From a virus: a DNA stretch of 46,497 nucleotides. Both the position numbers and the translations under genes were made by a program. The stretch lies in UHGV virus genome UHGV-1364979. The stretch is one strand, 5' to 3'. Below the pieces are notes generated by a model that searched no databases, had not been told where the DNA came from, and was given only the letters and a program-made list of their open reading frames with translations. Positions 31,982-35,775 of the stretch are shown here, piece after piece (within the stretch, counting starts at the first letter, position 1; every line of letters starts with the position of its first letter).

Positions 31982-32398
31982 ATGGCCGCCAAAATGAGAG
32001 GTATCCAGCAGGCTATTAAGCGCACTCAGCAGATAGTCGGTGAGATTACTGGTGAGAAGGCGGTATCAGCAATAAAAGCCGCCAACTACATCATCAGGAC
32101 TGAATCGGCCTCCATGACGCCAATAGCCACATCAAAGCTGATAAACAGCCAGTATGATACTGTTGAGGTTAATGGCACTCGCATAACTGGCAAGATTGGG
32201 TATACTGCTAATTACGCCCTGTATGTCCATAATGCACCTGGTACGCTGCTGGGTACGAATACGCCGCGCACCGGGCGGCTCAAAGGAAAGGGCAACGTAT
32301 GGGATAAGAGCGGTGAGCCTAAATTCCTTCTCAAGGCTGGCGAAAATACACGCGAGCTTGTCGATCAGGTAATTAAAAAAGAGATGACGCTAAAATGA
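31982..32398 (+). CDS. HK97 gp10-like neck / tail-completion protein, putative
   Basis: 138 aa. Assigned by position and size. Confidence 0.45.
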   Translation: MAAKMRGIQQAIKRTQQIVGEITGEKAVSAIKAANYIIRTESASMTPIATSKLINSQYDTVEVNGTRITGKIGYTANYALYVHNAPGTLLGTNTPRTGRLKGKGNVWDKSGEPKFLLKAGENTRELVDQVIKKEMTLK

Positions 32399-32778
32399 GA
32401 GATATGCTTGAGCTTGTTGACCAGTACCTTAGCGATGCCGGCCTTTATGATGGGTGGACTTCTCAGCTTGAGTTCTGGAACGATACCGAAGTTGGCACAG
32501 ACCGGTTTATGGTGCTGCAATCCAATGGCGGGACGAACGTAAGCAAAGGACTCGGCGGCGATTACTATTTTTCGCTCTATGTTGTCGGCCAGCAGGGTCA
32601 GTACAACATCGAGGAAACAAAAGTAAAAGCGCTTGATGTCATCTCATATATCAAAGAGCATCCAGTTGATAGCTGCATTGGTATGATTCAGCTACAGGCG
32701 CCGCTTGGTCGTCCAACACTCACTACAGAGCAGAGGCCGGTTTATGAATTGTTGCTGAGGGTTGTTTTTGGTGAGTAA
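32395..32778 (+). CDS. tail terminator protein, putative
   Basis: 127 aa, last of the connector set. ATGA overlap. Confidence 0.45.
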   Translation: MRDMLELVDQYLSDAGLYDGWTSQLEFWNDTEVGTDRFMVLQSNGGTNVSKGLGGDYYFSLYVVGQQGQYNIEETKVKALDVISYIKEHPVDSCIGMIQLQAPLGRPTLTTEQRPVYELLLRVVFGE

Positions 32779-32855
32779 TGGCTCCCGCGACAGGATTCGA
32801 ACCTGTAATCATCCGATTATGAGTCGGGTGCTTTAACCAGTTAAGCTAAACGGGA
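32779..32855 (-). tRNA. tRNA-Met (anticodon CAT; could be Ile2 if lysidinylated)
   Basis: Hand-folded 77-nt cloverleaf: 6/7-bp acceptor stem, D stem GCTT/AAGC, anticodon loop CTCATAA, T arm ACAGG-TTCGAAT-CCTGT, encoded CCA. Two mismatches (7:66 and 27:43). Confidence 0.75.
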
Positions 32856-33686
32856 ATTTGGTGCGCCGCTTCAACCGTGAATCTGGTGCCAGAATAACCT
32901 ATCTAAGATAGTTTATTTAGCATTGCAGTTCAGAGGATATCAGTTCGACGACTTTAGGGTGATCAGCCCATTTCATATGTATTGTTGTGGCCATGGTGCC
33001 TCCATGTTGCTGGTCGGTAAATCCAGCAGGCATAACAATTCACCAGTGTATCTCTACCTTGCCGCGTGCGCATAGCCGCATTACCACAACGATAAGAGCA
33101 CTGCACTTTGCTTCGTACTCCGTGGCAATCAAGTCCACCATGTAAACCTGCAATGCTCTTACCTGTTGTGTGTTGTGACTACTAACCCCGGAACTCATTA
33201 CCGCTCTTTGGCTCGACCTTTTTACAGGTTAGTGAGTGTTTTTCATCCGCTTGCACTCATTTTATTTGTTTTCGTCACAACGGAAATGGCACTTTCATCG
33301 CTGCAACATGACGGTAAATCGGATTCACTGCATCACGTACAAAATGCCATTTCCTGTTGTATGCCCTGACTTATTAATCACATCTCAGGGCCGCAATGCG
33401 CCGAATTCATTGACAAGGAATCGGAAGAACTTGCTGGTGTTTAGCCGTTAGGCTACTGCCAGATACATTTCTTCGTTTGCATTTATCTTTGTGGTCAGTT
33501 TCTAAAAACCCGCAAAGTCGCACCGAAAAATATCGGAAAGAGCACTCATTGCATCGACCAAACAGAATCGTCTTTTCGATTATGACTCTACTTTGACGGT
33601 TGCTCTGCTGCGCTAACCCAATGCCCTTACATGATAGTTGCCGGTTACGCGTCCGGCGTCTTTCGACCGCTAATTCGATCACTTCT

Positions 33687-33863
33687 TCAATTTTGCGTTG
33701 TAATGTCGCTACACCATGACCCTTTATCATGTGCGCCTGCGCATTTTAGCGCTTCGCCGGTATTCATTTTGAGTGATTCAGTTTCAATGTATGATTCACT
33801 CTTGCCTGGACTTACCTCAACGCTAAGGATTACCAGTAGCGACATTATAATTAACTCAACCAA
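33687..33863 (-). CDS. 58-aa hydrophobic N-terminus protein (TTG start after AGGAGG)
   Basis: SD AGGAGG at 33874-33869, 5-nt spacer, TTG at 33863. It lies downstream of the minus promoter at 33917-33889. Confidence 0.3.
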   Translation of the reverse strand: MVELIIMSLLVILSVEVSPGKSESYIETESLKMNTGEALKCAGAHDKGSWCSDITTQN

Positions 33864-33888
33864 GTTAACCTCCTGTGCTGTTGATTTA

Positions 33889-33917
33889 AATCTACACCAC
33901 CAATCAAAACCTGTCAA
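33889..33917 (-). promoter_or_regulatory. promoter TTGACA-N17-TAGATT reading leftward toward the tRNA
   Basis: -35 at 33917-33912 and -10 at 33894-33889. Confidence 0.6.
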
Positions 33918-33928
33918 CATGATATAAT
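33910..33928 (+). promoter_or_regulatory. rightward promoter CCTGTCAAca-TGaTATAAT (extended -10) for the major tail gene
   Basis: Perfect TGnTATAAT at 33920-33928. Same CCTGTCAA element as at 36076. Confidence 0.6.
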
Positions 33929-33962
33929 GCGATTGTTTGGCTAAACACAGAGGATTCTAAAC

Positions 33963-34718
33963 ATGGCTATTTGTGCAAATGATAACGGCATCATCACAGG
34001 TCGCCAGTCGCTCATTGAGCTGGCTGATGGCTGCTGGGATGCTGTGCCAGCAGAGGAAGACTGGAAGTTTTTTGCTCCCATGACCTCAAAAGGCGTCGAC
34101 TTCAGCCCAAGCACCACCACCTCAGAGGCTGATGATGGCGATGGCTTTGTCGCCACGCTGGTCACTACCGCAGACCTCACCATTTCCGGTGATTTTGAAG
34201 TTCGTAAGGCTGACAAGGCTGATGAGTATGGCGTGCATAACCTCATTAAATACTTTGTCACCGAAGTCAAGGCGCGTCGCCAGCCTTCGCTGTGGGTTCG
34301 CCAGACCACTGGCAACACCGTTGTGGTGGCTTACTGCAACATCACCGCTCTGAGCTACGATGGCGGCACCAACGACATCATCACCGGCTCAGTTGAACTC
34401 AAGCCATATGATGGCTCTACCGTTGACGTGTCCAGCATCGAAGATTTGACGCTGACCACTGATATCAGTGCAATCAAAAGCGTTGCCACTGGCGACACTC
34501 TGACGCTCGGTCCGGTAGTTGCGGCTGGCGGTGTCGAGCCTTATACCTACCAATGGTATAAAGGCACTTCGCCGATAAGCGATGCTACTACCGACACGCT
34601 CACCAAGGCCACTGCTGCCGCAGGTGATGCTGGTACGTACTTCTGCCGCGTGATGGACTCGGCAACCAGTCCTGATTACGTTGACTCTACTAAGTGTGTC
34701 GTCACCGTGACCTCATAA
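33963..34718 (+). CDS. major tail protein with C-terminal Ig-like domain
   Basis: 251 aa with a strong promoter and terminator. The C-terminal 90 aa are Ig-like (YTYQWYKG...YFCRV). Confidence 0.75.
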   Translation: MAICANDNGIITGRQSLIELADGCWDAVPAEEDWKFFAPMTSKGVDFSPSTTTSEADDGDGFVATLVTTADLTISGDFEVRKADKADEYGVHNLIKYFVTEVKARRQPSLWVRQTTGNTVVVAYCNITALSYDGGTNDIITGSVELKPYDGSTVDVSSIEDLTLTTDISAIKSVATGDTLTLGPVVAAGGVEPYTYQWYKGTSPISDATTDTLTKATAAAGDAGTYFCRVMDSATSPDYVDSTKCVVTVTS

Positions 34719-34925: not shown

Positions 34926-35214
34926 TCTCCTCTCTGATTGCAGTATCCAGTTGTCGACGCAACATACACAGCGCTCCGTGTGGCATAAACTGTGAAACCA
35001 TTCCGTCGAATATCTTCCGGTTTAATTTATTATCAATTCTCGGCCTGATTGCAGACCAGCATGACCTGATTGCGTGATTTACAGGCCTGCGGTCCAGCAT
35101 TGCGAGTCGTGCAGCTAACTCAATGGTAACGAGCGCGTCAAGATACTGCTCGCATGAGTAGCGTGATTCGTCATCCTCTTCCGTGGTTTTTATGGTAGTT
35201 AAGTTTTCTTTCAT
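34909..35214 (-). CDS. hypothetical protein
   Basis: 101-aa ORF. Confidence 0.45.
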   Translation of the reverse strand: MKENLTTIKTTEEDDESRYSCEQYLDALVTIELAARLAMLDRRPVNHAIRSCWSAIRPRIDNKLNRKIFDGMVSQFMPHGALCMLRRQLDTAIREENDDDS

Positions 35215-35683
35215 ATATCAATCTCGCCTTAACGGCATCGTCAAAGTTTACGTAGTAACCTATTGTTTTCTTTTTGCCATCAATTGATATTGAAGACTTC
35301 CATTTCCCAAACCTATTAATAAAACAAACGCCACTAACGCCGCTAGTATTGTTTTTTTGCCTTGGCCTGTTTTTCATATTCTCAGGCATTGACACATTTC
35401 TTAGATTTTCTATCCTATTATTAGTCCCATCACCATCAATATGGTCGATGTAATCAGGCCAATAACCATAATTCATAAACCATATTACCCTATGAGATTT
35501 GTAAACCTTGCCATCTATCCTTATGTTAATGTAAGACGTCTGATGATCTTTGCTTTTTGACTCCCAACCAGCTTTGCTACCTTTGACCTTCCTGGCGTAT
35601 CTATCAACATTCCATACGAGATAACCATCATTATGGTATGTGAACAGTTCATTAAGCCTATCAAGCGATACGTCTGTTAACAT
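35171..35683 (-). CDS. HNH endonuclease with AP2 domain (homing-endonuclease-like)
   Basis: IDHIDGDGTNNRIENLRNVS is the HNH motif. SGVSGVCFINRFGKWKSSISIDGKKKTIGYYVNFDDAVKARL is the AP2 domain. Start MLTDVS with SD GGAGTG. Confidence 0.85.
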   Translation of the reverse strand: MLTDVSLDRLNELFTYHNDGYLVWNVDRYARKVKGSKAGWESKSKDHQTSYINIRIDGKVYKSHRVIWFMNYGYWPDYIDHIDGDGTNNRIENLRNVSMPENMKNRPRQKNNTSGVSGVCFINRFGKWKSSISIDGKKKTIGYYVNFDDAVKARLIYERKLNYHKNHGRG

Positions 35684-35775
35684 TGAACACTCCATACACC
35701 ATCGAATACTATGTAACATATGACACTTGGCGCGGGTTTATCTGTCATCTATTTTTCTTCTCATCAAGCATCACC

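Follow-up and report, generated by a model that had tools for sequence, protein, structure and literature searches.

The virus genome UHGV-1364979 (46,497 nucleotides; this whole stretch is referred to below as the window) belongs to a T1-like Klebsiella siphovirus. The 1.1-kb gap between two of its tail genes is occupied by a leftward RNA operon (33917..32779, minus strand), i.e. a single promoter-driven and largely non-coding transcription unit. Read from 5' to 3', the operon comprises a small-protein gene, a hairpin, an element that resembles transfer-messenger RNA (tmRNA), two long hairpins, a tRNA-like cloverleaf, a decayed tRNA-Ser/Arg and an intact tRNA(CAU), and these modules recur, reshuffled, in many enterobacterial phages. 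No single database record covers more than 55% of the interval, and we therefore regard it as a mosaic. The module that concerns us most is the tmRNA-like element (33530..33363), which has no tRNA-like domain. Judging from its sequence, it is evidently derived from tmRNA, of which it retains the organisation from just upstream of the tag through pseudoknot 3.

In the related phages VLCpiS13d and KlebP_265 the equivalent gap is flanked by the genes for tail completion and for the major tail protein; in relatives of this type it harbours tRNA-Ser, -Arg and -Met, or just tRNA-Met, and is free of protein genes. A sequence-only reading of the locus had left open whether the RNA between promoter and tRNA is a structured non-coding RNA, a decayed homing-endonuclease or intron remnant, a set of micro-open reading frames (ORFs) or a deletion scar, and had considered an intact protein gene in relatives as a sign of simple pseudogenisation. 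The first of these options describes the interval best, as it proves to be a series of conserved RNA modules with covariation. The remnant is contradicted by the lack of any Rfam intron match at E <= 10 and of protein-family matches to the ORFs tested; none of the relatives has an intact protein gene at this spot, and what they carry are the same RNA modules together with tRNA-Ser, -Arg and -Met. Neither the micro-ORFs nor the scar found support, the region being a mosaic non-coding RNA operon. Nothing in 32600..34100 matched the covariance models of the large phage RNAs GOLLD and ROOL or of YrlA at E <= 10.

The tmRNA-like element and its distribution

The first lead to the element was a permissive Rfam search, which returned weak tmRNA and tmRNA_permuted matches at 33448..33595. 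They stem from AUAAAU followed directly by the codons GCA AAC GAA GAA AUG UAU CUG GCA GUA GCC UAA, which we refer to as the tag frame. The whole element consists of a leader (GUUUUCG..GCGACUUUGCGGG..UUUAGAAAC), the tag frame, a helix-5-like stem and the pseudoknots 2 and 3. According to blastn, about 190 nucleotides (nt) around the tag are 71-95% identical in ~850 phage records from very different groups. From these matches 17 diverse annotated phage loci were retrieved, in which the element is conserved, and a degenerate pattern scan of IMG/VR added at least 119 further loci, so that 136 copies were collected. The retrieval patterns fixed codons 1-3 of the tag frame, and only frames of 8-14 codons with a final Ala passed the filter.

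The copies represent T1-like, Felix O1-like, Ackermannviridae, N4-like and P1 phages as well as the late leaders of lambdoids. In other T1-like phages the element is located ~10 nt downstream of a promoter identical to that of the window (an arrangement seen in loci L001, L002, L008 and L013), and in the window ~350 nt comprising the small ORF and the first hairpin have been inserted directly after the promoter and before the element. In Felix O1-like phages the element lies within the tRNA array, on the same strand and directly after a promoter; in P1 it is found in the leader of the ban operon, after the annotated dicF-like region and before tRNA-Asn; in the Ackermannviridae it occupies a long gene-poor stretch, and in an N4-like Klebsiella phage it follows the tRNA cluster. 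In lambdoid prophages it is placed between tR' and the holin gene and is bracketed by lambda-type hairpins. In every case its strand is the transcribed strand of tRNA or late operons. Of 5426 complete E. coli genomes, 149 contain the lambdoid version, which is left unannotated by PGAP among the matches listed. Local alignment to E. coli ssrA reveals similarity only around the resume codon and the tag. A scan of species-representative genomes with the pattern AAATGCAAACGA-N18-GCNTAA yielded 75 matches, as compared with an estimated ~69 expected by chance, and ARAGORN recognised no tmRNA among them. The literature that could be searched, queried for phage RNAs of a tmRNA-like or ssrA-like type and for the six commonest tag peptides, contained no relevant description.

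Many GenBank records (e.g. those of loci L004, L008, L011 and L012) contain short coding sequences for a "hypothetical protein" that overlap the element and the adjoining RNA modules, in many cases antisense to them. Such calls are likely to be spurious, and they would affect several hundred phage genomes. In the T1-like copies of loci L001, L008 and L013 the element has at its 5' end the sequence (G)GAUAGUUUUCG, which is similar to the 5' acceptor strand of the phage tRNA-Ser(GCU), GGAUAGUUGGC (L013 1955-1961); this resemblance, which other lineages lack, may mark a recombination junction. The gammaproteobacterial small RNA STnc100 was matched in Klebsiella phage Menlow (L004 2498-2712; 53.2 bits, above the Rfam gathering score of 47) and, below the threshold, in P1 (L006 2678-2797; 33.4 bits), both times in the gene-poor RNA regions of these phages.

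Structure and covariation

The structure of the element was read from the sequences and tested on a MAFFT alignment of 62 non-redundant copies. Over the whole structure 90% of the cells are paired, as compared with 82% in shuffles and 33-45% when the partners are slid; 17 pairs have changed on both sides, and the covariation score (0.27 vs 0.13) was matched by none of 500 shuffles. The outer stem of the helix-5-like structure is paired in 98%, with its fourth pair being GC in 33 sequences and AU in 28. In pseudoknot 2, stem a is 95.8% and stem b 96.4% paired, the swaps are evenly or nearly evenly divided (29:29 for CG and UA, 34:23 for GC and AU), and all four pairs of stem b have changed on both sides. 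Stem a of pseudoknot 3 is 94.5% paired and shows compensatory changes. As read from the alignment, its stem b has been wholly and compensatorily replaced in the Ackermannviridae (GGCGGGAGG/CUCCCGCC), in P1 (CCCCG/CGGGG) and in L037 (GAUCC/GGAU). The fourth pseudoknot, which would complete the PK2-PK4 set of tmRNA, is absent from the element.

The tag reading frame

Eight codons upstream of the tag frame there is an in-frame UAG. Every one of the 136 copies among the matches listed has kept the frame unbroken, always with 10 codons and without insertions or deletions. These listed copies comprise 32 nucleotide variants and 18 peptide variants, the latter all following the pattern AN[DE]x...[AV]A. 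TAA, TAG and TGA all occur as stop codons, and codon 10 is GC followed by any base. Among pairs of variants that are single-nucleotide neighbours, 12 of 17 differ synonymously, where 22.9% would be expected (p = 4e-5); the synonymous changes include one first-position exchange between the Leu codons CTG and TTG, and the non-synonymous ones are conservative. For codons 4-9 and the stop only, our own count gives 8 synonymous pairs of 13. Upstream of the tag, A(-4) and A(-3) do not vary in the 62 aligned sequences, and the conservation of U(-5) is at least 90%; we take U(-5)/A(-4) to correspond to U85/A86, which set the resume frame in E. coli tmRNA. An ATG in the +1 frame upstream of the tag is not conserved, with AAAT, AATC, AAAC and AACT among the variants. 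The synonymous excess, the fixed frame length and the intact copies together suggest that the tag peptide, and not the RNA alone, is under selection, which in turn would imply that ribosomes read the frame in the manner of tmRNA, independently of a start codon.

Search for an acceptor domain

The best-scoring Rfam families are the two-piece tmRNAs. RF04321 reaches 19.6 bits in the window and, at best, 34.7 bits in relatives (gathering score 47), and RF01850, with 17-23 bits, aligns through the resume region, the tag and pseudoknot 2; RF00023 scores 11.7 bits in the window and does not exceed 20 bits elsewhere. Lacking an acceptor stem, a T arm, G3:U70 and CCA, the element itself cannot be charged. 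Several ways of supplying the missing part were considered and rejected. A complete tmRNA is contradicted by the silence of ARAGORN in the window and at all loci. As to a hidden acceptor domain, the few 7-of-7 matches between leader and 3' strand occur at an (estimated) chance number and are not conserved, and no pairing of the 5' and 3' parts of the element into an acceptor-type stem was found above chance. An acceptor piece of the two-piece type is missing upstream of the element, where the window has the promoter, the small ORF and a hairpin. A closing helix made of the 3' arm of the upstream hairpin and the 5' arm of the downstream one, as an analogue of H2, was also dismissed: compensatory changes fall within each hairpin instead (AAUGGCA/UGCCAUU in hairpin 1 of the window), and promoter-proximal copies have no upstream arm.

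Downstream of the tag module, tRNA-like elements are found in several lineages. In the window this position is taken by the tRNA-like cloverleaf, and in relatives the T-like stem of this cloverleaf has undergone compensatory exchanges (CCUGG/CCAGG, UCUGG/CCAGA, CAUGG/CCAUG). In other phages the same closing stems enclose a canonical D arm and a T arm of the form GCCGG-UUCGAUU-CCGGC. The acceptor-like part of the cloverleaf in locus L111 scored a weak 20 bits with the Rfam tmRNA model, a result that was not reproduced when five related loci were searched together.

Other tRNA-like sequences at these loci are unannotated. In locus L005 (E. coli O157 typing phage 8, Felix O1-like) one such sequence lies ~120 nt after the tag element (1665-1743). 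It has an acceptor stem CGGGGCG/CGCCUCG with G3:U70, A73, an encoded CCA and a very tmRNA-like T arm, and no D arm; Rfam scores it as tRNA with 31.7 bits and ARAGORN is silent. Two Ackermannviridae (L009 ~1690-1900 and L011 ~1560-1810) carry tRNA-like RNAs directly after the tag element, with a T arm, acceptor-type pairing and a 3' CCA (AUGGGAG...GAAGGUUCGAGUCCUUC-CUCCAAU-C-CCA and GCCGUUA...UUGGGUUCGACUCCCUA-AAACGGC-U-CCA), again without an ARAGORN call. In P1 (L006 ~1850-2106) a GUUGUGC...GCACAAC inverted repeat brackets tRNA-Asn and tRNA-Thr, and the same repeat closes the cloverleaf in other phages, which makes these conserved stems look like cassette boundaries.

Possible functions of the element

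We consider it probable that the element is a functional tmRNA-derived RNA that engages the ribosome-rescue machinery in some way. The overall explanation that we favour, an RNA operon with the coding piece of a split tmRNA, stands at an even balance in our judgement. According to this scenario RNase III would cut the primary transcript at the long lambda-type hairpins, and RNase P together with 3' trimming enzymes would cut at the tRNA and the tRNA-like structures, releasing the tRNA and a tag-template RNA of ~170-200 nt; it is from the flanking hairpins that we infer the physical separation of this RNA from its neighbours. The tag-template RNA would then work together with an acceptor domain in trans, either the phage tRNA-like element where present or a host component, and ribosomes stalled during infection would be rescued, their products receiving a phage-specified degradation tag. 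The idea that the element supplies the coding piece of a split tmRNA, and that the acceptor comes in trans, is proposed tentatively, as somewhat short of probable. We favour this role because the tag peptide seems to be selected, and it fits with the two-piece families being the best in Rfam, with the tRNA-like elements downstream in several lineages, and with the G3:U70, A73 and CCA of the tRNA-like sequence in L005. Similarly tentative, and perhaps a shade more so, is the wider proposal of a stand-alone tmRNA-derived tag template that occurs in many enterobacterial phages and prophages, is excised from tRNA or late transcripts and is read without an acceptor domain of its own, so that the phage would decide the tag during infection. 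Such a template could be the coding half of a split tmRNA, or it could use an undescribed, pseudoknot-guided entry.

A considerable number of observations weigh against the split-tmRNA proposal. The scores of the window with the Rfam models (11.7-19.6 bits) lie far below the gathering score of 47, and ARAGORN calls no tmRNA in the window, in the 17 annotated loci or in the 136 listed oriented loci. In a T-arm scan of the window the only canonical T arm was that of tRNA(CAU) itself. The cloverleaf of the window has a degenerate T-loop (AGGCA) and neither CCA nor G3:U70, and this copy looks unfit for charging. Only 45 of 113 copies are followed by the strict GUUGUGG...CCACAAC bracket; among the lambdoid copies there are many that lack a tRNA within kilobases, and no universal acceptor partner was found across the lineages. 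Predicted pairing with the host tmRNA did not surpass that of shuffled sequences, the RNAduplex energies being -86 to -105 kcal/mol with E. coli ssrA and -84 to -94 kcal/mol for shuffles. The case for a translated tag has its own weak points: the retrieval patterns and the filter inflate the apparent conservation at the ends of the tag frame, and a part of the frame pairs in helix 5, so that some constraint comes from the RNA structure. Upstream of the tag, the helix CUUUG/CAAAG that resembles PK1 is 85% paired and shows almost no compensatory change, with AUUUU/AAAAU found by eye at this position in the Felix O1-like copies. Finally, we know of no mechanism that loads a tag template untethered from its acceptor domain into a stalled ribosome.

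The main rival, which we hold to be rather unlikely, is that the element is a decoy, i.e. an untranslated mimic of the message and pseudoknot ring of the host tmRNA, which titrates S1, SmpB, RNase R or the 30S head and thereby damps or redirects trans-translation. The element does comprise precisely what tmRNA has besides its acceptor domain, with nothing added, and its leader and the loop of pseudoknot 3 (GCGACUUUGCGGG, UUUAGAAAC, AUUAAUAA) are conserved at the nucleotide level, as would be expected of a binding surface. There is also a precedent in reverse, the RNA of mycobacteriophage DS6A that consists of the tRNA-like domain (TLD) only and has been discussed as a possible inhibitor of tmRNA (PMC4131195). 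However, a pure RNA mimic does not predict the synonymous excess and the strict frame length across a highly variable middle, and the middle of the tag differs from that of the host in nucleotides while the peptide keeps its degron-like ends.

It is improbable that the element and its neighbours are only a leader or processing scaffold, whose modules process, stabilise or time the downstream tRNA (or the late genes in lambdoids) and in which the tag is an inherited passenger or a leader peptide translated in the conventional way. This would agree with the invariable position of the element, between lambda-type hairpins in a tRNA- or late-operon leader, and with the stretch from promoter to tRNA being devoid of a terminator. 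However, a leader peptide is at odds with a frame that has no start codon or Shine-Dalgarno sequence and with the lack of conservation of the other-frame ATG upstream; many copies have no downstream tRNA within kilobases, and processing by RNase III or RNase P does not require two covarying pseudoknots. A relic, in which a decaying tRNA/tmRNA cluster has become a functionless scar apart from its last tRNA, is more improbable still. The window has indeed lost the tRNA-Ser and tRNA-Arg kept by its relatives, the T-loop of its cloverleaf is degenerate and its module content is mosaic, but the element is conserved across unrelated phage families with compensatory changes and with the frame intact in all 136 listed copies, and compensatory changes have preserved the perfect stems of hairpins 1 and 2. 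Unrecognised protein genes (the 107-aa ORF at 33730..33407 or micro-ORFs with Shine-Dalgarno sequences such as that at 32994) are the least credible explanation: minus-strand ORFs of 107, 52, 47 and 38 aa do exist and the first small ORF (33863..33687) does look real, but the 107-aa ORF has no PHROG match and is peculiar to the arrangement of the window, since the promoter abuts the RNA element in relatives, and the substitutions in the element track base pairing and the tag frame rather than the 107-aa frame.

Relationship to known systems

The closest likeness is to tmRNA itself (SsrA, 10Sa RNA; RF00023). Both have a resume-type GCA without a start signal and preceded by U-A at -5/-4, a 10-codon tag that starts with AND and ends with small hydrophobic residues and Ala (ANDENYALAA in E. 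coli), a stop codon in the loop of helix 5, and H-type pseudoknots after the tag. Unlike tmRNA, the phage element has at most three pseudoknots instead of four and ~170 nt instead of 363, is encoded by phages and prophages in tRNA or late operons with long hairpins on its flanks, and is uncharged, having no acceptor parts. The permuted two-piece tmRNAs of alpha- and beta-proteobacteria and cyanobacteria (RF01849, RF01850, RF01851, RF04321) likewise have the tag template separate from the RNA with the CCA end. However, their coding piece includes the 5' acceptor strand and their acceptor piece is located just upstream, neither of which is detectable here.

Derivatives of ssrA are also borne by other phages, among them the mycobacteriophages Bxz1, Cali and Catera, Bacillus phage G and DS6A. 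While the others have complete tmRNAs, DS6A is similar to our case in that a phage carries half of a tmRNA; it is the acceptor half, to which the element described here would be complementary. An exhaustive survey of RefSeq viruses in 2014 found ssrA only in eight mycobacteriophages (PMC4131195), and outside the RefSeq set the same survey names Bacillus phage G and the TLD-only DS6A (PMC4131195).

The lambda late leader, from tR' to gene S, has identical or nearly identical hairpin arms (ACAACAGGUAAGAGCAUUG, AGUGCUCUUUCCGUUGUG) followed by a GUUGUG...CACAAC domain. In lambda, however, there is no tag element at this place, whereas the copy in the window occupies a gap between tail genes of a T1-like phage and has its own promoter. 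The ileZ-argN-argO-type tRNA genes of Stx and other lambdoid prophages also lie in such an RNA leader, where a CAU tRNA (Ile by annotation) accompanies tRNA-Arg(UCU), for the rare codons AUA and AGA. This CAU tRNA shares its D and anticodon arms with that of the window, from which it differs in the acceptor and T stems; the window has lost the Arg partner. GOLLD and ROOL are also structured phage RNAs found beside tRNAs, but the window contains a string of separate small modules rather than one large fold.

The tRNA(CAU), the lambda-type hairpins and the decayed tRNAs of the window are ordinary. The tmRNA-like element resembles tmRNA but lacks the tRNA-like domain that defines it. Thus far tmRNA has been seen as one hybrid molecule or as two tightly paired pieces, of which the tRNA-like half is indispensable; a conserved and apparently translated message half without the acceptor half, present in at least six phage lineages, textbook phages and prophages among them, is unreported in the literature that could be searched. 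If it is active in ribosome rescue, phages may tune or hijack trans-translation, which would be a new layer of host takeover, and a natural split system would make the loading of the template into the stalled ribosome testable. If it is a decoy, nature would have provided an RNA inhibitor of a pathway against which antibiotics are now being sought.

Promoter, probable small protein and other modules of the operon

The coordinates of all modules are given in Table 1.

Table 1. Features of the leftward RNA operon in UHGV-1364979 (positions in the window)
Feature	Coordinates	Strand	Description and basis
Sigma-70-type promoter	33889..33917	-	TTGACA-N17-TAGATT; 10/12 positions match; same sequence kept in relatives
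Small-protein gene	33687..33874	-	Shine-Dalgarno sequence AGGAGG (33874-33869) and TTG-start 58-aa ORF (33863..33687); homologues, conserved termini
Hairpin module 0	33531..33636	-	Arms UAUCAUGUAAGGGCAUUG / CAAUGAGUGCUCUUUCCGAUA around variable cargo
tmRNA-like element without tRNA-like domain	33363..33530	-	Sub-threshold Rfam matches, 62-sequence alignment, covariation
Tag frame	33448..33480	-	ANEEMYLAVA*; no start codon, no Shine-Dalgarno sequence
Helix-5-like stem	33434..33462	-	Outer CUGG/CCAG, inner UAGCC/GGCUA; stop UAA in loop
H-type pseudoknot 2	33401..33433	-	Stem CAAG(U)/CCUUG; loop CCGA pairs with downstream UCGG
H-type pseudoknot 3	33363..33400	-	Stem CGCAU/AUGUG; GCCCUGA pairs with UCAGGGC across conserved loop AUUAAUAA
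Long hairpin 1	33276..33360	-	ACAACAGGAAAUGGCA...UGCCAUUUCCGUUGUG
Spacer with small hairpins	33170..33275	-	Fold z = -0.68; no Rfam match
Long hairpin 2	33085..33169	-	ACAACAGGUAAGAGCAUUG...AGUGCUCUUAUCGUUGUG; same hairpin as in the lambda late leader
tRNA-like cloverleaf, 107 nt	32984..33090	-	8-bp acceptor-like stem GUUGUGGU/..CCACAAC, four arms; minimum free energy and centroid folds
Decayed tRNA-Ser(GCU) and tRNA-Arg(UCU) remnants	32858..32905	-	Alignment to L008 tRNA-Arg; Ser part by reading only
tRNA, anticodon CAU	32779..32855	-	ARAGORN; Rfam tRNA 59 bits vs gathering score 29

The leftward promoter suggested by the sequence-only reading is real on the strength of its match to the consensus together with its conservation in relatives; by number alone promoter-like sites in the region are at chance level (2 observed vs 2.5 expected in shuffles), and so is the match taken by itself. 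No terminator-like site was found between the promoter and the tRNA, which makes their co-transcription plausible. The processing of the tRNA from the leftward transcript, which had been considered a necessity, is likewise plausible, as neither a terminator nor a second promoter intervenes.

The strong Shine-Dalgarno sequence and the TTG-start ORF of 58 aa that had been noticed after the promoter are both present, and the ORF probably encodes a real small protein with a hydrophobic N terminus. It has six database homologues (E from 4e-22 to 1e-7), the alignment of which reveals the invariant motifs MSLL..LS.E and GEA.K..AHD.GSW separated by a variable linker with frame-preserving indels, and a homologous coding sequence of 50 aa precedes tRNA-Met in Pectobacterium phage Pappous. 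The ORF has no PHROG match, and its mismatches are not 3-periodic (11/14/14 by codon position). The conservation of nucleotides runs past its stop codon into a GCCGG...CCGGC hairpin. In this hairpin, GCCGG-ACGCGUAA-CCGGC (33640..33657, minus strand, in the window; ~1415-1435 in L215), 20 nt are 100% identical in Pappous and the flanks have diverged.

The claim that every frame downstream is broken, leaving only peptides of 25 aa or less, does not hold, given the four longer minus-strand ORFs mentioned above. These four are nevertheless very probably spurious, because they cross conserved and covarying RNA elements, and both ORFs tested against PHROG, including that of 107 aa, remained without a match. 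We discarded the conventional ORF readings, i.e. the 107-aa ORF, without a PHROG match, and the non-conserved +1-frame ATG before the tag. The GGAGG-ATG pointed out at 32994 falls within the tRNA-like cloverleaf.

Among the hairpins, module 0 is the least certain: its predicted fold is unexceptional (z = -0.75), its 3' arm has 3 mismatches to the consensus AGTGCTCTTTCCG, and its cargo is 98% identical to KpCHEMY26 (L017 1629-1728). Hairpin 1 folds with a minimum free energy of -34.9 kcal/mol (z = -6.2; none of 200 shuffles folds as well), its arms exhibit compensatory changes with respect to the consensus arms, and it is presumed to be a processing site of the RNase III type. Hairpin 2 (-33.8 kcal/mol, z = -5.2) is identical to lambda at 19 of 19 positions of the 5' arm and has 2 mismatches in the 3' arm; hairpins of the late-leader type fold at -33 to -35 kcal/mol. 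RNase III sites in the lambda late leader are attributed to Daniels et al. 1988, as cited in PMC7547250.

The tRNA(CAT) recognised at 32855..32779 by the sequence-only reading is called by both ARAGORN and Rfam, has a cloverleaf with an anticodon loop, a T loop and an encoded CCA, and abuts, as had been stated, the stop codon of the rightward gene (plus-strand ORF 32395..32778). According to ARAGORN it is the sole tRNA in the window. The only homologues in E. coli match it at 91.5% over nt 8-65 and have the same D and anticodon arms; PGAP annotates them as tRNA-Ile, and they adjoin tRNA-Arg downstream of Q in a lambdoid prophage. The hallmarks of an initiator, i.e. the 1:72 mismatch and three G:C pairs in the anticodon stem, are absent. 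In the long ORFs of the window ATA accounts for 13-17 per 1000 codons, or 22-26% of the Ile codons. The phage uses ATA about three times more often than its hosts do, which is well above enterobacterial usage. The annotation of the homologues and the codon usage thus favour the alternative, raised earlier, of an Ile2-type CAU tRNA: we consider the AUA-reading, lysidine-containing Ile2 type rather more likely than Met. The tRNA most likely reads the frequent AUA (Ile) codons of the phage and is probably mis-annotated as Met.

Between this tRNA and the cloverleaf, the Arg remnant keeps the 5' GCACCA and the 3' GGTT-GAA..GCGCACCAAAT of the L008 tRNA-Arg, and relatives have intact tRNA-Ser and tRNA-Arg at this position. 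AGA is used at ~10-12 per 1000 codons in the long ORFs of the window, yet the tRNA-Arg(UCU) kept by relatives is lost. Downstream of the major tail gene there is an ORF of 182 aa (35171..35719, minus strand), whose translation contains HIDGDGTNNRIENLR and appears similar to HNH-type homing endonucleases.

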